A stretch of DNA of 39,711 nucleotides from a virus (Duplodnaviria; Heunggongvirae; Uroviricota; Caudoviricetes). Below, in pieces: positions 1-39,711 of the stretch; the stretch's first letter is position 1, and each line of letters starts with the position of its first letter. The notes below the pieces were generated by a model. That model did not search any database. It was not told the origin of the DNA and worked only from the letters and a program-made list of their open reading frames with translations. The stretch spans positions 1 to 39,711 of IMG/VR virus record IMGVR_UViG_2531839665_000019. One strand, written 5' to 3'. Position numbers and translations under genes: made by a program.

Positions 1-579
1 CTAATTACTGCTGGTCGCCATCGCTCGGATTGAGCGTAAATCATCCAGGTTGCTCAACCTCTCTTTCATCTCCCGCTGACGTTGATAAATCTCGTCGTTG
101 CGATCGACCTGCGCCTGCGCCATTGCTGCTGCCAGTTCTTCCAGTTCCGGCATCGACAGTTTCACCTGTTGATTATCGGCGTCACCCCACGCCATAACGT
201 CCCGCGCCGTGTCAGATTTCGCAGCCATTACCACAGGATAAAGACGGGCCATTGAGTCGGGGCCAGCATTCCAGGTACGACCGTTCCATTCGAACGTGAA
301 CGGCAGTGCTTCCTGTTCTGTTCGCCACGCCTCGATTTCCCGTTTTTTGGCATCTTTTGCCGCTGCGATAAGTTCCGGCGTGACGGTGAACGGGGCGATT
401 TCGCCCCATTTGCCGCTCTGCAACTCTTCCCAGATGCGCTGGCCTGTCGGTGCGGTATCGTCCTGCATGGCGGTATACGGGACGAATTCCCTTTCACCTT
501 CAAATAACACCTCGCAGTCAACCGCACCATTTTCAAGGTAATGCGCGTTTCTGATGCCTTTTACCGCTCTGATTTTCAT
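1..579 (-). CDS. tail fibre assembly/chaperone protein (second fibre module)
   Basis: 192 aa ORF directly downstream of the 628 aa fibre gene; ATG at 579 with GGGGA SD; stop at 1-3. Family assignment by position and size only. Confidence 0.55.
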   Translation of the reverse strand: MKIRAVKGIRNAHYLENGAVDCEVLFEGEREFVPYTAMQDDTAPTGQRIWEELQSGKWGEIAPFTVTPELIAAAKDAKKREIEAWRTEQEALPFTFEWNGRTWNAGPDSMARLYPVVMAAKSDTARDVMAWGDADNQQVKLSMPELEELAAAMAQAQVDRNDEIYQRQREMKERLSNLDDLRSIRAMATSSN

Positions 580-592
580 GTTTTATTCCCCG

Positions 593-2479: not shown

Positions 2480-2493
2480 AGAGCCTCTGAATG

Positions 2494-2516
2494 ATAAAAA
2501 GCCGCCTGCTGGCGGC
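2494..2516 (-). terminator. putative intrinsic terminator between the two fibre modules
   Basis: Minus strand reads GCCGCC-AGCA-GGCGGC hairpin followed by TTTTTAT, lying between the Tfa stop (2525) and the next fibre start (2479). Confidence 0.45.
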
Positions 2517-2524
2517 TGTGGAAT

Positions 2525-3100
2525 TTATTCAAAGTCTGACCAGTCGATATCTGGTGCATTTTCCGGTTGAATACGATTTAACTTTATTCGTAATTTTCTG
2601 AGGGCTGTCAGTTGCTCCTGTTCCTCTGGTGTTGCTTCACCAAAATCAACAGCATCCTGTAAGATTGCGATTTGTTCTCCAGTCTGTTTCAGCAGGCTGG
2701 TTTTCTTTTCTGCCGCCTGATTAATCAGCGCATCACGCTTCGCCTCTTCATCCGTCACCCACTGACTGCCATCCCAGCGCTGGTATTCTCCGTCTGGTGC
2801 AATAAATGTGACATTTTCAGGAAGTTCCCCCAGTTCAGATATCGGGACTGCATTTCCGGTTTCTGTTGAATAAACCGTTTCCCCCCGATGGTCTTCAACC
2901 AGACGCCATGAATTGTCAGCAGTATCAAACATTGCTGTAAAACCTTCGGGGATTTCCGGCGGTACAATATCCGTACAGTTTGCGGGTAATCCGGTATGAG
3001 GCGGTATATAAGCGTCACCACTGCCGATAAATTCTTTTGTATCTTCAAGAAAATTAAATACACGAATGGTCCGTGCTTTATCGCTCATTTTAAAAGTCAT
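2525..3100 (-). CDS. tail fibre assembly protein (lambda Tfa-like)
   Basis: 191 aa; N-terminus FIGSGDAYIPPHTGLPANCTD and overall pattern match lambda-type Tfa chaperones. Confidence 0.8.
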   Translation of the reverse strand: MTFKMSDKARTIRVFNFLEDTKEFIGSGDAYIPPHTGLPANCTDIVPPEIPEGFTAMFDTADNSWRLVEDHRGETVYSTETGNAVPISELGELPENVTFIAPDGEYQRWDGSQWVTDEEAKRDALINQAAEKKTSLLKQTGEQIAILQDAVDFGEATPEEQEQLTALRKLRIKLNRIQPENAPDIDWSDFE

Positions 3101-4134
3101 TATGCAAGCCTCACAATATAGTTAAATGCGATGTTTTTGACGGTGTTTTCCGTATTGCCCGCAGCGTTAACGGTGATGGTGTGTCCGTGTGGACCAATAG
3201 CAACGGAGTGTGCATGTGCACCAATTGGAACGGCGTGCGCATGGTTACCTGTAGTGTTTGTGACACCAGACCAGGTTCTGGAAGCGTTAAAGTTTACAGG
3301 AACACCATAAGTAAAATTAGAACCCGTAAATCCATGGGCTGCCGCAGAGCCACCCAGTGTAAATGCTCCACTTGCTGTATAGAAATTACCGCTATCACTT
3401 CTGAAGTAACCGAGAGTACCGGTAATTTCCATAGTGCCTCGGTTGTGGTTATGGTCACCAGTGGCATTTGAAGACTTAGTACCATAATCAAACGACGACG
3501 TGGTTTTCGTCCCCAAATCCGTACTGGATGCACTGGCACTGTGGGCGTGTGATTTAATGCCGTCCTGCTCCTGAGACAATACAGCACGACCACTGGCAGG
3601 CTTACCCTTGATTGTCCAGCCCCGCATATCCGGGATAATCCCGGATGGGTAGACAGCTGCAAGTTTAGGGTAAGAGCCTTTATCAAAGCTCTGCCCCTGC
3701 ATTAAGGCATAGCCGGGTGGCACTGAATCAGACGGCCACGGTATTGGGGTACCTACCGGTAAAGCCACTCCCTGCAATTCTGTTATTTTTTCCGCCAGTG
3801 ATTTTACTGCCTTTGGTGTGGCTGCTTCCGTTTCTGAATCACTGTCTGTTGCGCTACTGAGCTGAACGATGCCTTTCTTCGTTAATGATGCGTCAGGAAC
3901 TTTTTCCCCGACATATTGCGATATAGCATCAATCAGTTGATTTTGTTTCTTCGGGTCCGGTGATATATCAGCCGCACGGAGCACATTAATAAGTTCCTGT
4001 TGCAGGTCTCGAATGGCTCCCTGCTGATTATTCATGTGTTCAGCATAAACAATAGTGCCCTCAATGCCCTGAGTGGGGTCACCATCGTGAAACAATTGAT
4101 CCGGCGTATTCACCGGAGGCATTAAATTCTGCAT
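3100..4134 (-). CDS. tail fibre protein with tail-collar-like C-terminal domain (344 aa)
   Basis: [25 protein letters not shown] motif, [11 protein letters not shown]...PDMRGW collar-like segment, His/Gly-rich C-terminus; start overlaps upstream stop (TAATG). Confidence 0.75.
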
Positions 4135-4706
4135 TACTGCTTATCCTCATACGTGAAATAACAGTCTGTAAAAGCCGGTTTAAGGTCTTTAAAGGTATTT
4201 TCTAAAATGGATTCACCAAAGGCCGTCAGCGGCTCACCTGTTGCAGATGCGCCCGTTCTGAAACGGTATACCGGCGTTTTTGCACCAATAACATTGACCT
4301 GCCATACCCAGCGCATTTCAGGGATAAACAGACGGTCACCGCAACGATTTACCCCGGTGCGAAAGGCTCGTGGTTCGGTTATCGTTATGGTGTATCCCAG
4401 GCTTGCGGCCAGATTTTTAAAATAGGGAATGGACAGCCCGCCCGTTGCCGCCATTTTTACCAGGATGTTCTGCCGCCGCTCCTGTTGGGTTGCCCCTTCA
4501 CGGGGGACAACACCGTACACGCGCTCCCAGTCGGACAGCGTCATCGATGCCTGCAACGGGGTGATTTGTGCCAGAACGCGCGCTGCTGAGGCCTTCACGG
4601 CCTCCATGACGTTAGCCTCGGCTGTCAGCTCCGCGGAAATATATTTCCCGTTCAGGTCATAACTGACCGGCGGCAGCATGGCGCGAAATAAATCGACCAT
4701 ATTCAT
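4134..4706 (-). CDS. tail protein, Mu gp48-like (P2 gpI-like)
   Basis: 190 aa ORF in the conserved baseplate block after the J-like gene; assignment by synteny. Confidence 0.55.
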
Positions 4707-18833: not shown

Positions 18834-19996
18834 GATGCCTCCGGTGTGTCCTGCATAACCCAGTCTGTCAGCACGTCATCCTCAACCGTTGCCACTGACC
18901 AGCGGTTGCCCGACTGTAACGCATACCGCCACGCGTTGCCGTCCTGCGTGACATGCTCCGCCCGTTCGATGGTCTGCTGCATCAGCACATAGTCGGCAGC
19001 GGTCGGGGGCGTGTCTGTTGCACTGAGGCGCTGCATGACGTCAGCCGTAAGGTTTACCGTCTGCCGTGCAGCACCCGTGGCGGCGACCTGTTCCGGTGAA
19101 CGGATGGCCAGCGGATATCGCTGGCGTGCATCCAGTTCGCTGACATTCGCCAGCCCCCGGGCAAAGTCCGGCCCGGTCAGGGTGCCGGTGACATACTGGC
19201 GGGCGCTGCGGTAATCGTATTTTTCCAGTTCCGGCTGCCATGCCACCCGACCGGGATTAAATCCGAAGCCCGGGTCGGCGGTATACACGGAGCCGTCCGG
19301 CATCTTCAGGCCCATCGTTCTTATGGTCTGGCCCGGCTGGCCATATTCCTGCTTAACCTCAACCAGTCTCCCCTCGCTGCTCTGCACCGTCAGGCCATAT
19401 TTCTCCACATCAGACGCCGAACGCGCCCGGATACGGCAGCGGCATCCGTACCCGTCTGGCGCGTAGAAATACTCCCAGACCGGGTCATCCGCCCGGGCGG
19501 TAAAGCCGTTCAGGGCGGCGTGTTTCGGGCGGGTGTGAAGGTCCATCACCGCCACGCGTTCAAAATAAGGCCGGTCGGCCACGTTCGCCATCTGCTGCTG
19601 ATAACGTCCGGCGTTATATGACGACTGAATATTGGTATCAAATATCGTGCGCAACCGGCGCGGCGTCAGTTGTCTGCCATGCAGTTCGCCGGTGTCCTCG
19701 TCCACAATCAGTTTTTTACCCAGCCAGCCTTTTGATTCCAGCAGTGGTTCCAGTTGTGCTGCAAACTCCCGGAACGTCCCGCCGTCAGCCAGTGCCGCCG
19801 TCAGGCCATCACGGATATCCTTCAGCACATCCAGTTTCAGCACGCCAGCCACCGTGAACGCCCGGGCGTGTGCGATGTCCTTCACATCGTGCCAGCGGAA
19901 GCCGATAACGTATCCCTTACTTTCGAAATACTTAATCGCTTCTTCCGGCTTCAGGGTGTACGCATAACCCAGGTCAACATCGTCAGCTGTCGGCAT
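18830..19996 (-). CDS. minor head protein (Mu F-like)
   Basis: 388 aa ORF immediately after portal. Confidence 0.8.
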   Translation of the reverse strand: MPTADDVDLGYAYTLKPEEAIKYFESKGYVIGFRWHDVKDIAHARAFTVAGVLKLDVLKDIRDGLTAALADGGTFREFAAQLEPLLESKGWLGKKLIVDEDTGELHGRQLTPRRLRTIFDTNIQSSYNAGRYQQQMANVADRPYFERVAVMDLHTRPKHAALNGFTARADDPVWEYFYAPDGYGCRCRIRARSASDVEKYGLTVQSSEGRLVEVKQEYGQPGQTIRTMGLKMPDGSVYTADPGFGFNPGRVAWQPELEKYDYRSARQYVTGTLTGPDFARGLANVSELDARQRYPLAIRSPEQVAATGAARQTVNLTADVMQRLSATDTPPTAADYVLMQQTIERAEHVTQDGNAWRYALQSGNRWSVATVEDDVLTDWVMQDTPEAS

Positions 19997-21578
19997 TCAG
20001 TCGCCCCCAGATATCCGCCACAAAGAATGCCTGTGTCAGCAACTGTCGCAGCGTGTCATCCGGCAGTTCCGGCCACGCTTCCGCCAGTACGTTCATGGCC
20101 TCGTCCGCATCCCGGCCTTCCTGTATGGCCTGCACCAGTGGGGCCACCAGTTCGTTCATCCCCTGCGCGATGGCCTCTGCCGGAAGTTCTGCCCGGTCGA
20201 TGGCGCGCTGTGCCGGGTCGTCCTCCCCGTTGTCCTGCTGACTGAGTGCGACAACATTCAGCCGCTCACGCAGCTGGCTGAGGCCCGCCTGCACAGGGAG
20301 ACGCTGTGCCACCGGCACCAGTACCTCTTCGCCGTCTTTCGGGGTGGGGATACCGGTTTTTTTGCGTACCCACGACACCGGGATATCCTTCATCCCCACT
20401 TTGTTGACCAGCACGCTGACGGCTTCCGCCACGCCCTTAATGTCGGCTTCCTGCTGCACATCAAACACCAGTCGCGGCAGACGGCGTGGCGGGATATCCT
20501 GCCAGCCGTTCAGGCTGGCCATCATCTGTATCAGGCTGCTGAACATGCCGGACAGCTGGCGCGCATCGGCGGCCAGAATGTCGTGCCTTACCTCGTTATG
20601 CACATTACCCAGCGCGTTGGTGGAGGTTTTACCGTCGGCCTGGCTGGTCAGCGTACTGCCCAGAATCACTTTTGAGGTGGTACGTTCTGCCCATTCCACC
20701 ATCGACATGAACGCCTCCGGTCCGCCGGACGCGGCCTCCTTGAACTCAATTTCGTTACCCTGCGGCAGGGCTGCCACTGCTTCATGCCCCAGATTAACCA
20801 GGGCTTCGAGAATGTTGTCCCGGTCTTCGTCACTGGTGCCCTGTGCATAGTACGCAATGCGCGCCGGAAGGCCGTAAATCTCCAGAAATTCCGCCATATC
20901 ACGCAGCGCAAAGTTTTTGAACAGATACGGCCAGACCAGTACGCGGAACAGGCCGGATGAACCCAGGAACCCCGACCGGGCGTTGTAACGGTGAACCAGC
21001 CAGCCGAACGGCCACAGCGCGGAACCGTCTTTACCATCTTCCCCACGATTGCCGTCATCCAGCCGGAGTTCGTCATTGTGTTCTGGCAGGGTAATAAACC
21101 AGTTATGCGGGCGCAGCGTCACCGCATCCGGTAACCACGTTTTATCCACGAACGCCCAGCTGATTTCCTGACAGCTGAAGCCGTAACCGACGCTGGTCAT
21201 CCCGTTGAGGATGATGTCCTCCATGTCCGGGATACCATGCAGCCAGTCATCCACGGCGGCAGCCAGCTCCTTTTCTGCCTTCGAGGCATTGCGGGGCGGC
21301 TCCACCGACCAGTCCAGCGTCAGCAACGCTTTTTTGCGCTTTTCCATCTCGGCGAACAGATGGCCATCACGTTCTTCCATATCCGCAAACAGCATCGCCT
21401 GCGCCGGAAGATAGCCGCGCTCGGCGGCTTCCAGAATGCGCGGCAGTTTTCTGATGTTCAGACCACGGGACGGGTGGTCGGGATAAATGCGCAGCCGTTC
21501 CGCCACTCTGACCGACTGCGTGGTTTTTAGTGCCTCACGTTTCAGCGGGCGTCCGTAAATATCAACAAGCTGTGCCAT
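19983..21578 (-). CDS. portal protein (Mu gp29-like, DUF935)
   Basis: 531 aa ORF following the large terminase. Confidence 0.85.
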   Translation of the reverse strand: MAQLVDIYGRPLKREALKTTQSVRVAERLRIYPDHPSRGLNIRKLPRILEAAERGYLPAQAMLFADMEERDGHLFAEMEKRKKALLTLDWSVEPPRNASKAEKELAAAVDDWLHGIPDMEDIILNGMTSVGYGFSCQEISWAFVDKTWLPDAVTLRPHNWFITLPEHNDELRLDDGNRGEDGKDGSALWPFGWLVHRYNARSGFLGSSGLFRVLVWPYLFKNFALRDMAEFLEIYGLPARIAYYAQGTSDEDRDNILEALVNLGHEAVAALPQGNEIEFKEAASGGPEAFMSMVEWAERTTSKVILGSTLTSQADGKTSTNALGNVHNEVRHDILAADARQLSGMFSSLIQMMASLNGWQDIPPRRLPRLVFDVQQEADIKGVAEAVSVLVNKVGMKDIPVSWVRKKTGIPTPKDGEEVLVPVAQRLPVQAGLSQLRERLNVVALSQQDNGEDDPAQRAIDRAELPAEAIAQGMNELVAPLVQAIQEGRDADEAMNVLAEAWPELPDDTLRQLLTQAFFVADIWGRLNADS

Positions 21579-21581
21579 TAA

Positions 21582-23279
21582 TTACCATCCTCCTGAACCA
21601 AAACGCCCGCCACGGTCACGCCCGGTGCTGCGTGGGGTGTGAATCTGAAATTTTGCGCTGCGCGATACCGCCAGCGTCCACAGCATGTGCAGACAGTCCG
21701 GGCCATCATCGTGGTCGGCTTTGGGGTAGTGGCGTAGCTGGTCAATCAGCGTCTGATGTGCCGGACTGATGCGGATCAGGCCGTTGGCCATATGCGGCTG
21801 AAGAGACTCAATACGCAGCGCTTTATCCTCCAGCGGGATGACCGGCAGCGCCGGAACCGGCACGCCCAGCGCCGCCGAACGCTCAACCAGCACGGTACGC
21901 AGAAACTCCTGAAACTGGACGGACTCAAACGACCAGCACAGACAGTGGTATTCCCGCTGATACTTAATCACGTCTTCGATAAGTTTGTTTGGCAGACGTC
22001 GGCGGATATCGGCTTCAACCACATCCAGAATGCCGGTAAAGCGGTTAAAGCCCCCCACGAGAATGGCCGACGGGTCGCGGTTTTTGTTTTTCTTCCCGAG
22101 ACTGGGGTCAACAGCACCATAAAACACCCATTCATCAAGACGGTTAACCCAGAACTTAATGCAGCCAGCAAACAGCGCATCTTCACCGCTGACCGGGTCG
22201 TTCTGGTATTCAGAATCAAAGGTGTCATGACCGTCACGGACACGGATTTTCATCAGTGCCAGCAGGGGACGCGCCGCCCATGACACCACCGACCCGGCGA
22301 GCATGTCGGCTTCGTTCTGTCGGTAAAGTGCCTCTGCTGCTTCCGGCTGTTTGTTGCGGATGAGTTCTTCCCACTCGTCCCACAGCTTCATATTGGCAGG
22401 CCACTGAATGACAGCCTTAAAGCGGGCCGTTTTCCACATCGGGTTATTCAGCGTGCGTGACAGTACGGAGTCGTAATGCAGGATGGTCCCGATATAAATA
22501 ATATCGGTTTTACCGCCAGCCTCGCCCAGCGGCATCACGGTTTTGGTGAGCCAGTCATGCAGCTTGTCGCGCTGCTCCGGGTTACGCACCATCTCGTCGT
22601 TCTCGATGTCGTCGAGGATGACCAGGTCAGGACGGTACGGACCGTGGCGCAGACCACGCAGTTTTTTACCACTACCGGCAACGGTCACCTTGATATTGTT
22701 GGCCGTGACGATGGTCCCCATACGCCAGACGCGCCCCTGTCCGCACACTTCCGGGAAATCGTTTTTTAAACGGGGGTTAAATTCCAGTTCAGCCTTGATG
22801 GCTTCCAGCATCGGATAAGCCTGGTCGATACTGTCCATAATGATGACCGGGTAATGTTTAATGGCCCGGATAATGGTCCACAGGGTAAACAACTGAGTCA
22901 CCAGCGTGGATTTTGCTTCACCACGGGGGGCGGCGATGGCGTCGTTCTCCGGGTCCGGGCTTGCCACAACCTGTGGCAGACGGCTGAACAGGTATTTATG
23001 CAGCTCGCTTTTTGCCGGGTTGCGGACGTAGTGCGGGAAATAGTTTTCGACAAAATAATCGTAGCCCGTCACCGGGTCGCAGACTGCCGCCCGGCGGGCC
23101 TGTGTGGCCTGCGGGTTAACATCGAACCCCAGACATTCAGCCTCAATGGTCTGGCGGAGGTTGGCGATGTACTCCTGTAAGCTTCTCTGAAACTCTTTAA
23201 TGGAAAGTTTACGTTTTGCCACGTCACACCTGCGCTGCTTCTGCCTGCGCTTTTTCGAGACGTGCGCAGGCGATATCAA
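21582..23279 (-). CDS. terminase large subunit
   Basis: 565 aa; Walker A-like PRGEAKST and Walker B-like DLVILDDIEND; listed start is TTG and overlaps the MTase gene, so the true start is uncertain. Confidence 0.85.
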   Translation of the reverse strand: MISPAHVSKKRRQKQRRCDVAKRKLSIKEFQRSLQEYIANLRQTIEAECLGFDVNPQATQARRAAVCDPVTGYDYFVENYFPHYVRNPAKSELHKYLFSRLPQVVASPDPENDAIAAPRGEAKSTLVTQLFTLWTIIRAIKHYPVIIMDSIDQAYPMLEAIKAELEFNPRLKNDFPEVCGQGRVWRMGTIVTANNIKVTVAGSGKKLRGLRHGPYRPDLVILDDIENDEMVRNPEQRDKLHDWLTKTVMPLGEAGGKTDIIYIGTILHYDSVLSRTLNNPMWKTARFKAVIQWPANMKLWDEWEELIRNKQPEAAEALYRQNEADMLAGSVVSWAARPLLALMKIRVRDGHDTFDSEYQNDPVSGEDALFAGCIKFWVNRLDEWVFYGAVDPSLGKKNKNRDPSAILVGGFNRFTGILDVVEADIRRRLPNKLIEDVIKYQREYHCLCWSFESVQFQEFLRTVLVERSAALGVPVPALPVIPLEDKALRIESLQPHMANGLIRISPAHQTLIDQLRHYPKADHDDGPDCLHMLWTLAVSRSAKFQIHTPRSTGRDRGGRFGSGGW

Positions 23280-23964
23280 AATACTGGTTAGTCATTTCAA
23301 TGCCGGTAAATCGTCCGCCACGGGCAAGAACCGGAAGCGCGGTTGTCCCGCTTCCCATAAACGGATCGAGAACGTGCGCATCCGGTGCCAGCGGTTTAAC
23401 CAGCTCGGCCATCAGCTGAACCGGCTTTGCGGTCATGTGCAGTTTTTCGGACGGGACGACACGCTGCGTAATCACACCCGGGAACGGGCCACCGTGCGGG
23501 CATTTGTCGAGTTTTCCGTTGCTGCCCCAGACCACATACTCGGCCTGATGCCGGAAATAGCCGGTGTGTGGCGCACGGGAAGCCTGCGTTTTATCCCAGA
23601 CAACCAGACCGCGCCACAGCACACCACCGGCCTGAAATGCATCGGTAAGCGCCGGTAGTTGTCGCCAGTCACTGAACACCATGAAATAACCGCCGGGATT
23701 CAGCCTGTGCAATGCATGAGATATCCACATGGAACACCAGAACGCCCAGCTGCGCTGGTCGCGGTTATCGCCGGTGAACTCGGCATACTGAGTGTGACCG
23801 ACATACTTGTCCGAAGGGGCCATGCTGCGGTCTGATTTGTGTGTGCCACCACTGCTGTAAGGCGGGTCGGTAATGACGGCATCAAAACGTTCAGATAACG
23901 CCGGCAGCACATCAAGAACATCACCGCAATACAACGTTGCGTTACCAATAATCTGTTTTTGCAT
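23224..23964 (-). CDS. DNA methyltransferase, beta-class N6-adenine/N4-cytosine (orphan, no cognate nuclease seen)
   Basis: 246 aa; motif IV DPPY near the N-terminus, HMTAKP, and C-terminal AdoMet motif DPFMGSGTT. Confidence 0.9.
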   Translation of the reverse strand: MQKQIIGNATLYCGDVLDVLPALSERFDAVITDPPYSSGGTHKSDRSMAPSDKYVGHTQYAEFTGDNRDQRSWAFWCSMWISHALHRLNPGGYFMVFSDWRQLPALTDAFQAGGVLWRGLVVWDKTQASRAPHTGYFRHQAEYVVWGSNGKLDKCPHGGPFPGVITQRVVPSEKLHMTAKPVQLMAELVKPLAPDAHVLDPFMGSGTTALPVLARGGRFTGIEMTNQYFDIACARLEKAQAEAAQV

Positions 23965-24010
23965 TACAAATCCCGAATATCAGACGGCCCGGAAAACCGG
24001 GCCGCTGTGG

Positions 24011-24511
24011 TTAACTGAAATTATCCTCAAGCTCTTTAGCGAAGCCTTCGAGCACCTCAAGGAACGCGGCATACTGTGCCGGGTGACGCTCCTTGATGAA
24101 CGCGCCGAGCCGCTGCACCACTTCCAGTGCTGTGGCGAGCCGGTCGGTTTCCGGCAGGATTTTTTTACTGCTGGCCACCGCCTTACTGAGACTGTCAGAC
24201 AGACTCGCCAGCAGTTCGACGGACTCCTGCGGCGGGATGTCCGGGTTCTGGTTCAGCCGTTCAAGCGTCGTCTGACACTTCACCACCAGACTGATAAGCA
24301 CGGTGCGGGCGACACTTTCCAGCCCGTCACCGGCGAGCGCGTGAGCGGCACGCAGCTTGTCCCAGTCGTCGCCGTTTTTCATCGCCTGCGTTTTCCAGCG
24401 CCGCGCGGTGTCGTGCGGCACGGCGTACTTCATGGCGACGATATCCAGCGGAAGCTGGTCAAAGATGTACCCGTTACGGACTTTGTCCCTGATATCCTGT
24501 GACCACGCCAT
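24011..24511 (-). CDS. Mu gp27-like protein (putative small terminase subunit, DUF1804-like)
   Basis: 166 aa ORF upstream of MTase and large terminase. Confidence 0.45.
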   Translation of the reverse strand: MAWSQDIRDKVRNGYIFDQLPLDIVAMKYAVPHDTARRWKTQAMKNGDDWDKLRAAHALAGDGLESVARTVLISLVVKCQTTLERLNQNPDIPPQESVELLASLSDSLSKAVASSKKILPETDRLATALEVVQRLGAFIKERHPAQYAAFLEVLEGFAKELEDNFS

Positions 24512-24717
24512 TAAGTGTCCTTCTGAGCCTGTTCAATCAGGCATTTAACTTCGTAGGGATTTTCAAGAACATACACGTTTTTCCCGGTATCCAGCTCAAT
24601 GATCGTGCCACCATATGCACCACACTGACGGTAAAAATGGGTGATGCGTTCAGCGACTACCATGACAGCGCTGGTGCTCCCTGAGCCTGCGCATTCTGTA
24701 AATCTGATAATGCTCAC
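24511..24717 (-). CDS. hypothetical phage protein
   Basis: 68 aa ORF between lysis genes and gp27-like. Confidence 0.4.
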   Translation of the reverse strand: MSIIRFTECAGSGSTSAVMVVAERITHFYRQCGAYGGTIIELDTGKNVYVLENPYEVKCLIEQAQKDT

Positions 24718-24737
24718 TGTGTCAGACCTTCAAAAAA

Positions 24738-24920
24738 TCAGTTCTGCGAACACTGCCGGATGCCGTCAATAATCCGGCAGACCTGTGCCGCCGCGTCAAA
24801 CAGCTGGCCCGCTCTGTTAATGTCTGTGCATCCCACCGGAAGCAACATCATCAGAAACAGGGCCAGAACACAGCGCGCGGCTTTACGTGGCGTTCTGTGG
24901 GTCCAGTGACTTCTGTTCAT
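24738..24920 (-). CDS. small membrane/lipoprotein-like protein (possible o-spanin-like)
   Basis: 60 aa; basic N-terminus, hydrophobic stretch, Cys after LLPVG (non-canonical lipobox); immediately after endolysin. Confidence 0.35.
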   Translation of the reverse strand: MNRSHWTHRTPRKAARCVLALFLMMLLPVGCTDINRAGQLFDAAAQVCRIIDGIRQCSQN

Positions 24921-24933
24921 AACCCGTCCCGCA

Positions 24934-25311
24934 TCAACGTTTTAACTGGAAATGAGGCCCGTCTTTCAGCGTTTTCCAGTCTCCGCCCCATTCGATGGCG
25001 ACACCCAGCTCTGCGGCAGCCTGTTTAAAGGCACGGGCGATTTTTTCGTATAACGGCCAGTCCCATGAAATGGTGCTACCAACGTAAGCCACGACATCAA
25101 CGGCATCGCCAGTAAGGTGACGGCTGTTCATGGTCTGGCTCTTGCCTTCAGCGACAAGTTGTTTCTGACGTTCTTTCGTGCGTAAACCTTCGGTAATACC
25201 AAAATCGACGTCTGACAATGCCAGCGCACGACGTACAACCGCCACCAGTTGTGGCTTTACGCCAGCCAGATTTTTCTCGCTACGTTGACTGAAACGGAAT
25301 TTTCCCGACAT
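24934..25311 (-). CDS. endolysin, peptidase M15 family (L-alanyl-D-glutamate peptidase type)
   Basis: SRHLTGDAVD and DWKTLKDGPHFQL motifs; start ATG 25311 overlaps upstream stop (TGAATATG). Confidence 0.8.
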   Translation of the reverse strand: MSGKFRFSQRSEKNLAGVKPQLVAVVRRALALSDVDFGITEGLRTKERQKQLVAEGKSQTMNSRHLTGDAVDVVAYVGSTISWDWPLYEKIARAFKQAAAELGVAIEWGGDWKTLKDGPHFQLKR

Positions 25312-25313
25312 AT

Positions 25314-25592
25314 TCACCTCCGCAATAACGAAAGGATTTTTGACAAATTCCCGTGCGCCCACACGATAAGCGCACAGAAAACCAGATTCAGCGCCACAAC
25401 CAGCCAGCTGGAGTGCGTGTATGTACCGGACAGCCAGCGGAACGGGATGATGATGTAACCGAGCATCAGCCAGTACGCCAGCCAGGTAATCATCGGTTTA
25501 TGCGCTGCGCCGTGGCGGCGATACATAAACAACCCCAGCACAATGGCGAGACACAGCCAGACGTTCACAATACCGGCAAGGCTACTTTCCAT
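25314..25592 (-). CDS. membrane protein, holin/antiholin-like
   Basis: 92 aa with about 3 predicted TM segments; strong SD GGAGGGGG; between holin and endolysin. Confidence 0.5.
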   Translation of the reverse strand: MESSLAGIVNVWLCLAIVLGLFMYRRHGAAHKPMITWLAYWLMLGYIIIPFRWLSGTYTHSSWLVVALNLVFCALIVWAHGNLSKILSLLRR

Positions 25593-25974
25593 TTCCGCCC
25601 CCTCCGCCGCGCAGTCTGGAAAACAGGCTGAACAGCGATGAAATTTCCTGTTGATAAAGAAAAGTCAGTATCTTGATGGATAAAGCAGAGACACCGACCG
25701 CACACAATGCATCGAGCGGCTTGTCGTTGTAGTGGGTCAGCCACTGCATCAGTGACGCAGCCACGCCAGCCCCCAGAACGCCAACCACAAACGCGACGAG
25801 CAGGTGGATAGCCATTCGCCAGACCGGGATTTCTTTCTGCTGCGTGACAACAAAAAGCGCCCCGGCAAACGCGCCCACCACAACCCCGAAATCGGTATTG
25901 GTGAGAAGGCCAAACACACTGGCACCACCGATGGTGACTGCCACAGCTCCGCCGCCTGATAAGGGTTCAGACAT
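25582..25974 (-). CDS. putative holin
   Basis: 130 aa from ATG 25974 (AGGAGA SD, 6 nt spacing); multiple hydrophobic Gly/Ala-rich TM segments; first gene of lysis cassette. Confidence 0.55.
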   Translation of the reverse strand: MSEPLSGGGAVAVTIGGASVFGLLTNTDFGVVVGAFAGALFVVTQQKEIPVWRMAIHLLVAFVVGVLGAGVAASLMQWLTHYNDKPLDALCAVGVSALSIKILTFLYQQEISSLFSLFSRLRGGGGGNGK

Positions 25975-26131
25975 GAGTTTCTCCTGTAAATCTGAGCCAC
26001 TGACGGCCCGTAAATAACACCCTGTCAAAGGCACAAAAGCCTTTTGCAGGGCGCTATCCCTTAAGGTGCCTTGTGGTCTGAGTGGACAGGGTAAACGGTC
26101 TGGTATGGTGGGTACTGCTGGGGGAGTTCAG

Positions 26132-26151
26132 CACCCCGCGGCGGCGGGGTG
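26132..26151. other. GC-rich hairpin (8-bp stem CACCCCGC/GCGGGGTG) at the early/late boundary
   Basis: Perfect inverted repeat in the 120-bp gap upstream of the lysis cassette; no flanking U-tract on either strand. Confidence 0.3.
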
Positions 26152-26156
26152 ATAAA

Positions 26157-26435
26157 TCAGAAGCGGGAAAGAGAATCCGGCGTAATAAGAGGTTTATTAC
26201 AAAGCGGAGCAGAGGCGTTCGCCTTTTCCATCGCTGCGCGCATCTCGTTTTCGCTGGCGATGATGTCAGCAATGGCACACTGCAACGCTTCTTCCTGAAC
26301 AACCATATCCGGTTGTTCGGCCATTCGGTTTAACTGACTGGCCAAATTTTTCATATAAGCAAAGCGACGTCCGGCAGCATCCCGGGCCTGCTCTGAGTAG
26401 GCCGTATACTCGCCAAGTGCCATATAGTTGGTCAT
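26157..26435 (-). CDS. hypothetical phage protein
   Basis: 92 aa from ATG 26435 with AAGGAG SD; follows the Mor-like gene. Confidence 0.5.
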   Translation of the reverse strand: MTNYMALGEYTAYSEQARDAAGRRFAYMKNLASQLNRMAEQPDMVVQEEALQCAIADIIASENEMRAAMEKANASAPLCNKPLITPDSLSRF

Positions 26436-26461
26436 AAGTGTCTCCTTTTTTCTGAGGCCCA

Positions 26462-26929
26462 TTAATCAAAAAGCCCCACCTGGGTGGGGCTTTTCAGCGA
26501 AGTCTGTTTTTGTCGTCGGTGTATCAGCTGCCATGCGTACCGGTCTGAAATGCCGTAACGGGGACAGAGCAGTGCCAGCGCCTGCCGGTGTGAGCATCCG
26601 TCTTTTACATGCTGCTGTAAATCAGCCATAAAACGGGTGTTACGCAGGGCACGTAACGCATGATCGCAACGGGGAATGTAAAACGGAGCACCGCCAAGAA
26701 AGCGGATCAGTTTGTTGATTTCGTCTTCGGTCAGCACGTCATGTAACAGGGCATGGACACCGCCGGTGCGTCCGGCGTGTGCGCCGGTTTTACCGCTTAA
26801 CGTCACGCCACCAAAAGAACGAATCAACCGGGTCAGGGCGGGGAAGCCAATCACGCTAATCAGTTGCTGCACGGAATCGGGCAGCAGTGCCTGCGCATCG
26901 CGAAGATCTGTTTCACTGAAGGTCTGCAT
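26462..26929 (-). CDS. mor: Mor/C-family transcriptional activator
   Basis: 155 aa; C-terminal LGGAPFYIPR...YGISDRYAWQLI matches the Mor/C pattern GG..YIPR......YG.S. Confidence 0.8.
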   Translation of the reverse strand: MQTFSETDLRDAQALLPDSVQQLISVIGFPALTRLIRSFGGVTLSGKTGAHAGRTGGVHALLHDVLTEDEINKLIRFLGGAPFYIPRCDHALRALRNTRFMADLQQHVKDGCSHRQALALLCPRYGISDRYAWQLIHRRQKQTSLKSPTQVGLFD

Positions 26930-27024
26930 GATGGCGTCTCCGGTAGTAACTTACTGTTATTATAGCCATACATGATCGCCTGTACAGACCACAAAAAAGC
27001 CCCTGCAAGGCAGGGGCTGATTCT

Positions 27025-27438
27025 TTATTGTTTACGTGCTGCTCTGGCTCGTTTTCTGGCGTCTTTTGTCAGCGCCACCATCACCCCGAACAGTTGATCA
27101 TCTGTCAGCCATTCGATCACATGTTGCTTATACATGTGAGATGCCAGTCCTTCCGCATATGCCCAGGAACGACCGGCATCAGCCAGCAACGCTTCAATTT
27201 TGGATAATACCGATTTTCTGCTCATTGCCACACGGGGGCGGCGACCTTTACCGGCGGGGGCTTTACGCGGAAATCCCTGTTCGTGCATGTATTCCCGGAT
27301 GATGCGCAGTTCATCGAGGTTGCAGCGTGTGGTGCTGGTTTTACCGGTCAGGCGGGCCAGCGTCTGGCGATAAAGGACATCATCCCACCCCAGATACGCC
27401 TGACCGGCTTTAATGGCTCCGATCATCTTTTTCAGCAT
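27025..27438 (-). CDS. GemA-like regulatory protein (DUF1018, Mu gp16-like)
   Basis: N-terminus IKAGQAYLGWDDVLYRQTLARLTGKTSTTRCNLDELRII resembles the GemA pattern; start taken at internal ATG 27438. Confidence 0.6.
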   Translation of the reverse strand: MLKKMIGAIKAGQAYLGWDDVLYRQTLARLTGKTSTTRCNLDELRIIREYMHEQGFPRKAPAGKGRRPRVAMSRKSVLSKIEALLADAGRSWAYAEGLASHMYKQHVIEWLTDDQLFGVMVALTKDARKRARAARKQ

Positions 27439-27688
27439 GTTTGTTATCCTCAAAACGCACGGTAAAACGTGAAACGCCAATCCCTGACAGGAACGCAGCG
27501 GCACGGTCAAGAGACAGCCACGTCTTGTAATCGCCACGGCGTTCCTGTAGAAAATAGGACACCCCGGCGCGACGATTCACAGCAAAGAGGTGATACACAC
27601 CACCGAACCGCTGCACGACGAACTCATCCACGCCACCGCTTTCAGCCTGTTGCCTGAAAGCTGCCATTCCGATTTGTTCAATCTTCAT
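27410..27688 (-). CDS. hypothetical phage protein
   Basis: ORF downstream of a double palindrome; start ambiguous (27724, 27688 or 27667), none with a good SD. Confidence 0.35.
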   Translation of the reverse strand: MKIEQIGMAAFRQQAESGGVDEFVVQRFGGVYHLFAVNRRAGVSYFLQERRGDYKTWLSLDRAAAFLSGIGVSRFTVRFEDNKHAEKDDRSH

Positions 27689-36359: not shown

Positions 36360-36468
36360 AAGTATTGATCCATAAATAGAAAATTACAAGCTTTCTTTTC
36401 TTGATTTAGAGAAAAGAAAGTCTCTTTGTGGAGATTGGTTGAAAATCAATATGTTAGAAGGAAAGAAA

Positions 36469-37119
36469 ATGAGTAAACAAACCGCTGATGATTTTTCCTT
36501 TTCTCAGGATAGAAAAGAAAGCATTCAAGACAGAATCAAACAACTGATTGGCAGCAGGAGCCTGCGTAAAGCCACCTCAGACTGGGGATTACCGTACTCG
36601 ACCATAAATAACTACTTTGAAAAAGGCACCACACCTGGCCTAAATGTGGTCGCTACAATAGCAAAATTAGAGAATGTATCACTGGAATGGCTGGTCTATG
36701 GTGAGAACAAAAACATTCTAATGATAGAAAACACAAAGGTGGCTACAGAAGACGTTAACCGCCCCGATACAAGTATTGTTGACGAAATACTAAGACGAGC
36801 CGCTCCAGAAGATAGAGAGCGTCTTATTGATATGCTTTGTTGTATTGGTATCAAAGGAGTCCTGGAACGCTTACAACAACCCATCAGGCAAGCTACGCAG
36901 GCCGACAGCGACCAAGACGAACAGGAGAATGCCATCAGAAGCCTAAACATCAGGGAATCACTCAAAGACGTTATATGTATGGCTCTAGATGGTAATGAAG
37001 AAACCGACAAAGAGATTTTGCGACGCATCGAATCTCGTGCACGGGCTGGGTCGCCAGGTGGTCAGACCGCTGCCACGCCGGAACAAGAAACGAAGCCTGT
37101 AAGCAAAAAATCAGCATGA
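36469..37119 (+). CDS. phage repressor (CI-like HTH)
   Basis: Start taken at ATG 36469 (AGGA SD); HTH-like segment STINNYFEKGTTPGLNVVATIAKLENVSLEWLVYGE; divergent from ner/A/B as for the Mu c repressor. Confidence 0.7.
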   Translation: MSKQTADDFSFSQDRKESIQDRIKQLIGSRSLRKATSDWGLPYSTINNYFEKGTTPGLNVVATIAKLENVSLEWLVYGENKNILMIENTKVATEDVNRPDTSIVDEILRRAAPEDRERLIDMLCCIGIKGVLERLQQPIRQATQADSDQDEQENAIRSLNIRESLKDVICMALDGNEETDKEILRRIESRARAGSPGGQTAATPEQETKPVSKKSA

Positions 37120-37713: not shown

Positions 37714-37851
37714 TGGTTATCCCCGCTGACGCGGGGAACATAAGTTCGACAACTTAAAAAATGATAACAAGTCCGGTTTATCCCCGCTGATGCAGGGAAC
37801 ATAATAAAAACTTTAACTAGTTCGGTTTATCCCTGTTTTTACAAGGAATAT
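37714..37851 (-). CRISPR. degenerate type I-E CRISPR remnant (3 decayed repeats; spacers 32 and 20 bp)
   Basis: Repeats at 37714-37741, 37774-37802 and 37823-37851 with 2 to about 10 mismatches versus CGGTTTATCCCCGCTGGCGCGGGGAACTC. Confidence 0.6.
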
Positions 37852-38305
37852 TAACTACACTCGATGTCTTTAGAATAAAAGACAATACGAATCGCACTTT
37901 ATCAATTTTCACTTAAAGTATGAACTGGATATCTTTATTCATAAGAACTATTCATCAACAGCGTATAGAGGCGGTTATGTAAAACCACTCATTAGCCTCA
38001 AAACAAAGACAAACTTCCAGATTTATTACTTAACCAATGAATAACAAGCTTAAAAAACATACTGTTATTCTAAAGAAAAAATTAACAGGCATTAATTCAA
38101 TATTAAAAAAATAATAGATTAAAATTTCTTAACGATTTAAGAATCATACAAATAACACTTTGATTAAATTTAATTTTTTGTATCGATAATTGTGAACCTC
38201 TCTGGCATGGAGAACTATTTTGAACATGAGGTGTTACGTGGATATGTTGCTTATTACAAGTACTGCTAATATAAAAACTTGAGAAAGAGATAACGGGTTA
38301 TATGG

Positions 38306-38700
38306 TGGTTTATCCCCGCTGGCGCGGGGAACTCTAATCACGTTTTAGCGCGCCCTCGTCCGGTTTCGGTTTATCCCCGCTGGCGCGGGGAACTCAAGAC
38401 GACGTGATCCGCAAAGTCGAAGGCACGCGGTTTATCCCCGCTGGCGCGGGGAACTCTGTTTTTCTGCCGGTTTAACACGGTGCGATAACGGTTTATCCCC
38501 GCTGGCGCGGGGAACTCTGTTTCTGTCCCAACTGAACAGCGCCGATAGTCGGTTTATCCCCGCTGGCGCGGGGAACTCGAATGATCCCAAATTTGGGTTA
38601 CAGAACCAGTCGGTTTATCCCCGCTGGCGCGGGGAACTCGGACTTAAAGATCGCATCACAGTACTGGAGGGCGGTTTATCCCCGCTGGCGCGGGGAACTC
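38306..38700 (-). CRISPR. type I-E CRISPR array, 7 repeats / 6 spacers (E. coli ygcE-ygcF CRISPR2-type locus)
   Basis: 29-bp repeat CGGTTTATCCCCGCTGGCGCGGGGAACTC at 38306, 38367, 38428, 38489, 38550, 38611, 38672; all spacers exactly 32 bp; leader-distal repeat (38306) has a terminal base change. Confidence 0.95.
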
Positions 38701-38900
38701 TGTAAACATAACCTATTATTAATTAATGATTTTTTAAGCCAGTCACAATCTACCAACTTTATAGTATCACACAAACAACACATCCATTATGTTAAAGAGC
38801 ACTTAATCCATTGATTAAAAAGGTAAATATTTAAAATAACTCTATACAAACTAAAATCTACCAAACTTTACCGCAATAATTTTCACTCCAGCGAAAAATT
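38701..38900 (-). promoter_or_regulatory. CRISPR leader (AT-rich), adjacent to the leader-proximal repeat
   Basis: Minus strand begins CTGGCTTAAAAAATCATTAATTAATAATAGGTTATGTTTACA next to the repeat at 38672-38700, matching my recollection of the E. coli I-E leader end; extent approximate. Confidence 0.5.
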
Positions 38901-39039: not shown

Positions 39040-39711
39040 TCAGGCAATATTTAGATATTTATGTGTTTGCATCGACAAACGCCAATTACGCGCAATGCAG
39101 GTTTCAATGCACAAACGTGTGGCATCATCCTTTTGGCTAATCGGCTGCAGTGCAATGACTCGCGGTTTATCATCGGTCAGCGTTGCCAGTAGTTCATCCA
39201 GTGCTTCAATATCACGTACGCGCCCCACTGGATGCTTGATTTCGTTGGCTCGCTCCAGTGCCTGTGACAACACGTCATAGCCGCCGCGCATGTTCAGCTT
39301 TGGCGATACGGTAACCCAGGTATTCGGTGTGCAGCGTACTTCATGAGTTCCACTGGTTTCGATCTGGCAGCTAAAACCGTTCTTTTCGAGCAGGTCAGTC
39401 AGTGGCAGCAAATCATGAATGCAAGGCTCACCACCCGTAATCACCACATGCCGCGCGGTATATCCCTGCCGACCAATGACAGCCAGCAAATCTTCACTGC
39501 TCGCCGCCCCCCACTTATCACTCTCTTTGGTCTTCGCCAGAATGCTGAAAAGGGAGACTTCCCGATCCTCAAGCTTTTCCCAGGTGTGTTTGGTGTCGCA
39601 CCAGGCACAGCCAACCGGGCATCCCTGTAAACGAATAAAAATGGCGGGGACGCCGGTAAAGTAACCCTCACCTTGCAGGGTCTGGAACATCTCGTTAATC
39701 GGGTACTGCAT
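39040..39711 (-). CDS. queE: 7-carboxy-7-deazaguanine synthase (radical SAM)
   Basis: 223 aa; N-terminus MQYPINEMFQTLQGEGYFTGVPAIFIRLQGCPVGCAWCDTKHTW with Cx3Cx2C-type cluster motif; recognised as E. coli QueE/YgcF. Confidence 0.95.
   Translation of the reverse strand: MQYPINEMFQTLQGEGYFTGVPAIFIRLQGCPVGCAWCDTKHTWEKLEDREVSLFSILAKTKESDKWGAASSEDLLAVIGRQGYTARHVVITGGEPCIHDLLPLTDLLEKNGFSCQIETSGTHEVRCTPNTWVTVSPKLNMRGGYDVLSQALERANEIKHPVGRVRDIEALDELLATLTDDKPRVIALQPISQKDDATRLCIETCIARNWRLSMQTHKYLNIA

Follow-up and report, generated by a model that had tools for sequence, protein, structure and literature searches.

Why should a DNA methyltransferase gene with no partner endonuclease sit inside the packaging module of a Mu-like prophage? 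The locus that raises this question lies in a stretch of caudovirus DNA of 39,711 nt (IMG/VR record IMGVR_UViG_2531839665_000019), here called the window. The gene and the two motifs that identify its product are:

nt 23224–23964, minus strand: orphan beta-class DNA amino-methyltransferase gene, probably N6-adenine, 246 aa, ATG start, TGA stop
nt 23857–23868, minus strand: catalytic motif IV, DPPY (aa 33–36), GAC CCG CCT TAC in the sequence
nt 23341–23367, minus strand: AdoMet-binding motif I, DPFMGSGTT (aa 200–208), read from the sequence

An earlier sequence-only reading had proposed this ORF, its DPPY and DPFMGSGTT motifs and a beta-class assignment. The frame and both motifs are as described, and the class assignment is borne out by motif order, profile score and matches to solved beta-class enzymes. 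Motif IV is N-terminal and motif I (F-M-G-S-G, aa 202–206) C-terminal, which is the beta-class order, and the protein scores 86.9 bits (E 2.4e-24) against Pfam PF01555 (N6_N4_Mtase), well above the gathering cutoff of 26.7 bits. It also matches PHROG 67 ('DNA methyltransferase', E 2.6e-54) and PADLOC MTase_II (E 5e-65), and its homologues number more than 7,500. Residues D33, P34, P35 and Y36, together with D200, F202, G204 and S205, are invariant among 37 diverse homologues; given this conservation and the three profile matches, the motif pair is not a chance occurrence. Foldseek matched the AF2 model (pLDDT 83.8, pTM 0.84) with a probability of 1.00 to M.BceJIV, CcrM, M1.HpyAVI and M.MboIIA, with TM values of 0.6–0.8 for the top matches M.BceJIV, CcrM and M1.HpyAVI. 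The model shows a very small protein in which nothing more than short disordered loops stands where a target-recognition domain would be. The gene is under purifying selection (dN/dS 0.06–0.24).

Its immediate surroundings comprise the following features:

nt 24011–24511, minus strand: gene for a DUF1804 DNA-binding protein in the small-terminase position (PF08822, E 6e-53; PHROG 756, E 6e-68)
nt 23984–24005, minus strand: GC-rich hairpin with a 9-bp stem and UUUU loop, within the 46 nt that separate the DUF1804 and methyltransferase genes
nt 23220–23231, minus strand: junction of the methyltransferase stop and the terL start (Shine-Dalgarno-like AGGTG, TGA, one base, GTG)
nt 21582–23222, minus strand: terminase large subunit gene (terL), 546 aa from GTG 23222 (PHROG 38, E 1e-143; TIGR01630, E 2e-24)
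nt 19983–21578: Mu portal gene, next after terL

The sequence-only reading had seated the gene between the small and large terminase genes, without an adjacent restriction endonuclease and with its 3' end overlapping terL. TerL is confirmed, but the supposed small terminase is a DUF1804 protein, with homologues in D3112, DMS3 and JBD30; the PHROG 756 label is 'DNA binding protein', and the protein is a small terminase by position only, its gene immediately preceding terL, an arrangement shared with Mu-like phages of the D3112/DMS3 type. No nuclease gene adjoins the methyltransferase gene in the immediate locus, as had been stated, the flanking genes being those for DUF1804 and TerL. The overlap is real for the terL open frame, which extends to a TTG at 23279 and so shares 56 nt with the methyltransferase ORF, but not for the conserved start. 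PGAP places the terL start at GTG 23222 in three genomes, and the same CAGGTGTGACGTG stands ahead of terL in prophages without the methyltransferase. The likely start is GTG 23222, one base past the methyltransferase stop (TGAcGTG), and a true gene overlap was rejected because this start is conserved. The junction suggests translational coupling of the two genes rather than overlap.

The hairpin in the upstream spacer has a fold energy of −28.8 kcal/mol (z = −3.2), is followed by no T-run and was not called as a terminator. It is unchanged in a methyltransferase-less prophage, and analogous hairpins occur at two other loci (L012 and L015). Since an identical hairpin precedes terL in prophages lacking the methyltransferase, it is an element of the phage backbone, and the possibilities that it is part of a methyltransferase cassette or a Com-type regulatory site were rejected on the same grounds. 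An Rfam scan of nt 21000–27500 returned nothing relevant. Being stable and just upstream of the gene, the hairpin could attenuate transcription, which counts against the explanation preferred below.

Comparison with complete E. coli genomes shows the gene to be accessory cargo in a Mu-like prophage. Among 55 genomes in which the DUF1804–terL region is found at 95–99% identity, the methyltransferase is present in 36, always in the order DUF1804–methyltransferase–TerL, and absent from 19. The latter lack about 736 bp, almost exactly the ORF, and the indel covers no further gene. As 19 related prophages do without the enzyme, any benefit it brings must be conditional. The DUF1804–terL junction is a general cargo slot, with other small genes there at loci L013–L015 and L035. 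The prophage occurs in pathogenic lineages of E. coli, E2348/69 and a number of STEC strains among them. Strains with the gene include E2348/69, STEC316 and C5, an orthologue is also present in RM9088, and STEC346 and UMNF18 are natural relatives without it; in STEC316 the prophage end directly follows the tail-fibre chaperone, with no mom. No match emerged when nt 21500–24800 were compared by megablast with 50,697 phage records, and isolated phages carry relatives of the methyltransferase at the protein level only (≤54% identity).

The timing of expression can be approached through the genes upstream:

nt 26462–26929, minus strand: gene for a Mor/C-family transcription activator (PF08765, E 1.9e-6)
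nt 25582–26034, minus strand: holin gene (PF16931 and PF13539 are the Pfam matches of the holin and endolysin genes)
nt 24934–25362, minus strand: M15 endolysin gene, an upstream lysis gene in the same strand block

The Mor/C-family activator, whose gene is preceded by a promoter-like site (nt 26959–26986) and a terminator-like site (nt 26998–27018), probably switches on the late operon. The methyltransferase gene follows the holin, endolysin and DUF1804 genes on the same strand with tight spacing. Scanning the minus strand from the lysis genes to the methyltransferase (including nt 24511–23964) found no sigma-70-like promoter, in a search confined to matches to the sigma-70 consensus; an internal or activator-dependent promoter may still exist. 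There is no terminator between the methyltransferase stop and the terL start, which abut. The gene thus shows neither the own promoter, within this consensus-only scan, nor the own terminator of a phage moron. Because it has no visible promoter of its own, its transcription probably starts at a Mor/C-dependent late promoter and is shared with the lysis and packaging genes. Late timing is not a rule for the family, since the homologue bpm of phage BPP-1 lies in an early operon (cro-bpm-primase).

Taken together, the identity, class and fold of the enzyme, its orphan status, its accessory nature, the selection on it and the gene order are established. We consider it probable that this stand-alone beta-class methyltransferase, most probably forming m6A, is expressed late as optional cargo of a Mu-like prophage and shields phage DNA from restriction. 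Phage orphan m6A methyltransferases are a known kind, of which the window protein is probably one more member. Both late expression and self-protection, which the sequence-only reading had suggested, are probable from genomic context and from the relatives. In the proposed scheme, the prophage would hold the gene in the variable DUF1804–terL slot, and transcription from the Mor/C-dependent promoter would yield a transcript shared with the lysis and packaging genes, with terL initiation coupled to the methyltransferase stop codon. The enzyme would act late in the lytic cycle, modifying phage copies shortly before headful packaging, when those of a transposing phage are still integrated in the host DNA. 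The methylated DNA, once injected, would resist the restriction enzymes of the next host. Functionally, the enzyme would fill the role of mom, which is missing from this prophage lineage.

Known systems resemble the window enzyme to differing degrees. Judged by alignment, its nearest characterised relative is M.EcoGIX from the leading region of pESBL (27% identity over the full length, E 9e-24), likewise a small (227 aa) beta-class orphan DPPY enzyme of a mobile element. M.EcoGIX has a documented anti-restriction role upon entering a new host and targets the degenerate motif SAY (PMC7736820). It differs in being plasmid-borne, expressed early, on the entering single strand, and in being ssDNA-specific and linked to DNA polymerase I, whereas the window gene is phage-borne and in a late operon. 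The window protein falls outside NCBIfam NF010253 (PRK13699), to which M.EcoGIX and M.BceJIII belong, as it scores 75.6 bits against a cutoff of 244. Closer in sequence are the methylase of BPP-1 (Bpm, 53% identity) and the N-4/N-6 methylases of the P2-like Burkholderia phage KS5 (gp20) and Escherichia phage Chuche, which are of the same family (44–54% identity in alignments that span more than 93% of the length) and, like the window enzyme, phage orphans; no published target for any of the three was found in the literature. More widely, homologues at 45–80% identity occupy other slots in Mu-like and P2-like phages, mostly late ones; the positions taken include lysis, tail, portal-adjacent and early slots. 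The methylases of P2-like phages are found in tail, portal or integrase-side slots, often with com ahead of them (in KS5, Com is gp21).

Sequence-profile comparison places M1.HpyAVI (PDB 5HEK/5HFJ) first among solved structures (E 3e-29, full length). M1.HpyAVI, M.BceJIV and CcrM share the beta-class fold of the window protein at an identity of merely 21–24%, but are chromosomal enzymes with defined sites, whereas the window enzyme is phage-borne. CcrM has, in addition, a C-terminal DNA-binding extension that the 246-aa protein lacks, and against the CcrM family NF050803 the window protein scores 51 bits (cutoff 830), the alignment being confined to the C-terminal motif region.

The Mom system of phage Mu offers a functional parallel, as a late, optional adenine modification of a transposing phage that acts against restriction, and relatives of the window enzyme occupy the place behind com. 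There is no sequence kinship with Mom, however, whose product is N6-carbamoylmethyl/acetamido-adenine and not m6A, and the window has no com. In Mu-like prophages mom has been replaced by the promiscuous orphan m6A methyltransferases Hia5, Hin1523 and Nma1821, and Com, the translational activator of Mu mom, also controls the Hin1523/Hia5 methylases (PMC3299994). These enzymes are alpha-class and Dam-related, with DPPY near residue 194 and the mom position behind com. Membership of the Hia5/Hin1523 group was rejected for the window protein, which has the beta order with DPPY at residue 33, lies in another position and has no com. M.EcoGII, a beta-class orphan of an E. coli Stx/lambdoid prophage, methylates adenine non-specifically and is silent in the lysogen (PMC5778455); it is larger (349 aa versus 246 aa). 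Kinship with it was also rejected, as the M.EcoGII-type gene of STEC316 aligns at the motif I and IV segments only (E 4e-6, 56 aa).

These comparisons bear on how specific the enzyme is. It may be a promiscuous hypermethylase in the manner of Mom, acting on adenine in a degenerate context of 2–3 nt or in any context, a beta-class counterpart of Hia5/Hin1523 and M.EcoGII that would confer blanket protection. We hold this to be rather doubtful, and it is a variant of the preferred explanation, not an exclusive alternative. One argument for it is the Com association: a Com zinc-finger gene (PF10122) lies directly ahead of a homologue in about 19 of 106 loci (about 18%), a count made with home-made ORF calls, which are noisy in GC-rich loci, and then confirmed with Pfam. 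The homologues so placed share 47–60% identity with the window enzyme, and the known targets of Com, Mom and Hin1523/Hia5, are host-harmful modifiers (PMC3299994). The degenerate target of M.EcoGIX, the tiny size of the window protein with its disordered loops, and the retention of 45–55% identity in the family across phyla, those loops included, point the same way. Set against this, M.BceJIV and CcrM, its structural neighbours, recognise sites of 5–6 bp, and M1.HpyAVI is equally small yet is described as site-specific. M.EcoGII resembles the window protein in the motifs alone, and the Hia5 family has an unrelated, alpha-class architecture. No com gene was detected in the window (tblastn and a CxxC...CxxC motif scan), so that the upstream or overlapping Com gene of a com-mom-type operon is missing here. 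The fuller proposal is that this family of about 250 aa forms, alongside Mom and the alpha-class Hia5 group, a third independent lineage of host-harmful broad adenine modifiers kept under Com or strict late control, and that the window copy is a Mom substitute moved into the lysis-packaging operon, where it would methylate in a very short or degenerate context instead of at a 4–6-bp site; we advance it tentatively, as an unlikely possibility.

Returning to the enzyme as a stand-alone m6A methyltransferase, adenine is the probable target base, judging from DPPY and from the relatives. M.EcoGIX and M1.HpyAVI, the nearest characterised ones, both make m6A, BPP-1 Bpm is annotated as an adenine methylase, and the source annotations of the homologues are adenine-specific. 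PF01555 also includes N4-cytosine enzymes, which counts against a firm m6A call, and a rotifer N4-cytosine enzyme and M.PvuII are among the structural and sequence matches. That the window protein is itself an N4-cytosine methyltransferase nevertheless appears improbable, as its closest matches are all m6A makers and its motif IV is the DPPY invariant in the family, whereas SPPY or SPPF is the typical motif of N4-cytosine enzymes of the beta class.

Expression from the resident prophage, with epigenetic change of host gene expression or protection of the host chromosome, would make the gene one of lysogenic conversion. Orphan methyltransferases can act as regulators, and this one has been kept under selection. 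The related phage methyltransferases M.EcoGI and M.EcoGII are, however, silent in lysogens (PMC5778455). The window gene is embedded in a structural late operon, with a hairpin upstream and no promoter-like site ahead of it in the scan described above, and we judge lysogenic conversion very improbable. Least credible is a role in packaging or regulation, in which methylation would mark a pac-type site (as in P1, where Dam methylation is used for pac cleavage) or late promoters and would account for the seat between terminase genes: the gene does lie inside the packaging module, apparently coupled to terL, but this role was rejected because the gene is missing from 19 prophages whose DUF1804 and TerL are near-identical, the junction takes other cargo, and the homologues occupy such varied slots that the terminase neighbourhood is incidental.

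If the window enzyme proves site-specific, the finding amounts to routine annotation. Should the family turn out to be promiscuous, as the link with Com hints, the M.EcoGII/Hia5 toolbox would gain a compact enzyme, and Com control would have been co-opted on three occasions for different DNA modifiers. The natural methyltransferase-plus and -minus versions of the same prophage provide a ready comparison for the effect of the gene. Orphan methyltransferases carried by phages are one determinant of the restriction barriers that can be passed by a temperate phage and by the genes it transfers.

The sequence-only reading had described a beta-class DNA methyltransferase, and the open reading frame was recovered exactly as proposed, with both motifs read directly from the DNA.

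23224–23964, minus strand: methyltransferase ORF (ATG start, TGA stop, 246 aa)
23857–23868, minus strand: DPPY, aa 33–36 (GAC CCG CCT TAC)
23341–23367, minus strand: DPFMGSGTT, aa 200–208 (GAT CCG TTT ATG GGA AGC GGG ACA ACC)

Motif I lies C-terminal to motif IV, which is the beta-class order, and the protein matches Pfam PF01555 N6_N4_Mtase (E 2.4e-24, 86.9 bits; cutoff 26.7 bits), PHROG 67 'DNA methyltransferase' (E 2.6e-54) and a PADLOC model for Type II methyltransferases (E 5e-65). Across 37 aligned homologues, with identity down to 55%, residues D33, P34, P35, Y36, D200, F202, G204 and S205 are invariant, as is a block of residues in two loops, GDNRDxRSW and SRAPHTGYFRHQ. The AlphaFold2 model (pLDDT 83.8, pTM 0.84) is confident except in these two loops, and its best Foldseek matches are M.BceJIV, CcrM and M1.HpyAVI, all beta-class m6A enzymes; M1.HpyAVI is also the nearest solved structure by sequence profile (E 3e-29, full length). 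Together, the motifs, the matches in independent libraries and the modelled fold confirm the observation far beyond chance. Neither GC content nor GC3 stands out in this region, and dN/dS values of 0.06–0.24 (against relatives with 70–98% nucleotide identity) show that the gene is maintained by selection. It therefore encodes a selected, intact beta-class DNA amino-methyltransferase. The E. coli alleles at L009–L011 (93% identity) differ from that of the window almost only at aa 64–109 (also delimited as aa 75–109), a patch comprising helix 70–86 and the next strand; this pattern points to recombination of the segment and not to evenly spread divergence.

The window is a Mu-like prophage that carries in succession, mainly on the minus strand, genes for a repressor, MuA-type transposase, MuB-like ATPase, GemA, a Mor/C-family activator, holin, M15 endolysin, a 68-aa protein, a DUF1804 protein, the methyltransferase, TerL, the portal protein of Mu type and Mu-type head and tail proteins; the series ends with tail fibres at the start of the window. 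Among annotated sequences its nearest relatives are E. coli prophages with an identical gene order.

36439–37119, plus strand: repressor
26462–26929, minus strand: Mor/C-family activator
24011–24511, minus strand: DUF1804 protein (PHROG 756 'DNA binding protein')

The gene had been placed between the small and large terminase genes, without an adjacent restriction endonuclease. No nuclease gene flanks it (its neighbours are DUF1804 and TerL), and TerL does lie downstream, but the upstream DUF1804 protein is a small terminase by position only; it occupies this position also in Pseudomonas phages D3112, DMS3 and JBD30, and none of the libraries or records searched labels it a terminase. In E. 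coli STEC316 (L034, NZ_CP041431.1) the prophage copy terminates right after the DUF4376 tail-fibre chaperone, so at its right end this lineage carries neither mom nor another modification gene.

Several other features of the region were observed. Two consecutive tail-fibre/chaperone pairs occupy nt 1–4134 on the minus strand (3100–4134 with 2525–3100, and 593–2479 with 1–579); the window shows no invertase, whereas Mu has its invertible G segment. In the interval that separates gemA from the Mor/C-family gene, a strong terminator-like hairpin followed by a T-run (26998–27018, minus strand) directly precedes a sigma-70-like promoter (26959–26986, minus strand), and this element looks like the boundary of early and middle transcription. 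A type I-E-like CRISPR array (38306–38721; seven repeats, 61-nt period, repeat CGGTTTATCCCCGCTGGCGCGGGGAACTC), with degenerate repeat copies at 37717–37853, lies between the repressor end of the prophage and a radical-SAM gene (39040–39711), which places the prophage insertion beside a host CRISPR locus or within what remains of one. In STEC316 the same prophage interrupts the holin gene of a prophage that is Stx2e-converting (4289–4366 and 42247–42507); the lysis cassette of the latter, which begins just downstream of stxAB, is split by the insertion.

The 3' end of the methyltransferase had also been said to overlap terL. The mechanically called TerL frame does extend to TTG 23279, giving a 56-nt overlap, but this holds for the open frame and not for the genes. 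At the junction (...GCG CAG GTG TGA c GTG GCA AAA CGT...) the methyltransferase stop is separated by one base from a GTG, with a Shine-Dalgarno-like AGGTG five bases upstream of it. PGAP places the terL start at the equivalent of GTG 23222 in three genomes; the arrangement of stop, 1–2 nt and GTG-GCx-AAR-CGN is retained in L012, L013 and L015, related prophages in which the methyltransferase is only 74–78% identical; and prophages without the methyltransferase carry an identical CAGGTGTGACGTG upstream of terL. These three observations support GTG 23222 as the start; the two genes thus abut, probably with translational coupling, and do not overlap.

Among 5,426 complete E. coli genomes, 55 matched a 2,930 bp query (DUF1804, methyltransferase and terL) at 95–99% identity. 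The methyltransferase is present in 36 of these, while the other 19 gave a two-piece match spanning 2,194 bp in which it is not annotated. Alignment of filled and empty sites (the latter from strain STEC346) showed a difference of about 736 bp, which starts a little upstream of the ATG and stops shortly before the last codons. The 46-nt spacer holds a GC-rich hairpin (23984–24005, minus strand; -28.8 kcal/mol, z = -3.2) which, like the terL ribosome-binding region, is found in both filled and empty sites; the hairpin is thus a backbone feature and the cassette essentially a bare ORF. This hairpin, which lacks a T-tract, stands directly 3' of the DUF1804 stop and is recorded as a conserved feature also for L121, L012 and L015, with different sequences forming a similar stem in more distant relatives; it may serve to stabilise or process the mRNA, or in attenuation upstream of terL. 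In related prophages the junction holds other small genes, among them one for a lipoprotein in L015, a pair of small ORFs in L014 and several in Salmonella L035. Cargo across L013–L015 and L035–L037 includes the lipoprotein, 57–74-aa ORFs and, in Salmonella, a 159-aa gene on the reverse strand, and no Pfam match is on record for these small genes. The DUF1804-terL junction is a general cargo slot, a small-gene hot spot in Mu-like prophages of Enterobacterales. A transposing phage that lacks mom thus carries the methyltransferase as an optional gene within a late structural operon.

More than 7,500 homologues were retrieved. IMG/VR copies with at least 74% identity occupy the same DUF1804-terL slot in Mu-like phages, and more distant ones lie elsewhere.

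Positions of homologues outside the DUF1804-terL slot (identity to the window protein)
After a Mu F-like head gene: 68%
P2-like element, between invertase and tail sheath: 65%
Salmonella Mu-like prophages, between holin and lysozyme: 62%
Delftia P2-like prophage, adjoining the portal gene: 60%
Bordetella phage BPP-1, Bpm (annotated adenine methylase), early cro-bpm-primase operon: 53%

Homologues with 45–55% identity occur in Mycobacterium and Propionibacterium phages and in Planctomycetes, Firmicutes and other genomes. The gene is mobile among slots that mostly belong to late operons. In about 19 of 106 homologue loci a small zinc-finger ORF (IRCxxCxxKLA...IKCPRCG) lies immediately upstream of, or overlaps, the methyltransferase start; five representatives match PF10122 'Mu-like prophage protein Com' (E 1e-11 to 5e-19). 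The window itself has no com gene. The pairing is also annotated in Escherichia phage Chuche (GenBank) and was described in Burkholderia phage KS5 by Lynch et al. (gp20 methylase, gp21 Com; PMC3091744).

Hia5, Hin1523 and Nma1821 of Mu-like prophages take the place of mom behind com and accept almost any adenine for methylation, but are alpha-class, Dam-related enzymes with DPPY near residue 194 (PMC3299994); the beta-class order of the window enzyme rules out membership of that group. M.EcoGII is a 349-aa non-specific beta-class enzyme of lambdoid prophages (PMC5778455); its homologue from the Stx phage of STEC316 resembles the window protein in the segments of motif I and motif IV only. The best characterised relative is M.EcoGIX, a 227-aa methylase from the leading region of IncI plasmid pESBL, which aligns end to end (27% identity, E 9e-24). 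On single strands it produces m6A within the degenerate context SAY, and it shields the entering plasmid from restriction (PMC7736820). Plasmids with a member of its family number more than 5,000; with 75.6 bits, against an NCBIfam cutoff of 244 bits, the window protein is a homologue but not a member. The 3-nt degenerate site of M.EcoGIX, the near absence of a target-recognition domain from the window protein and the guarding of Mom and Hia5-type enzymes by Com elsewhere support the reading as a promiscuous, host-harmful modifier, the most interesting of the alternatives, although site-specific small relatives exist and we consider this reading rather unlikely.

N4-cytosine enzymes of the beta class typically carry SPPY or SPPF. 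The DPPY motif and the m6A-making relatives point to adenine as the probable target base, so N4-cytosine activity is possible but disfavoured. The genes lie on one strand with tight spacing and a promoter scan found no sigma-70-like promoter for the methyltransferase, which argues for late transcription, probably from a Mor/C-dependent promoter upstream of the holin gene; this operon context does not favour an epigenetic regulator expressed in the lysogen. A P1 Dam-like role in packaging or pac-marking is unlikely given 19 near-identical prophages without the gene and homologues with no tie to terminase genes.

Translation would be coupled into terL, phage copies would be methylated before headful packaging, and injected DNA would then escape restriction in a new host. 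M.EcoGIX has a documented anti-restriction role of this kind, and one has been argued for M.EcoGII and Hia5; for the window enzyme we infer it. It coincides with the self-protective role proposed in the sequence-only reading. That reading was in essence correct, the exceptions being the gene overlap and the firm small-terminase label. The enzyme is one more phage-borne orphan beta-class methyltransferase, of a kind already known; what the analysis usefully adds is a corrected start for terL, a natural presence/absence polymorphism, the gene's mobility and, in relatives, its linkage to Com.
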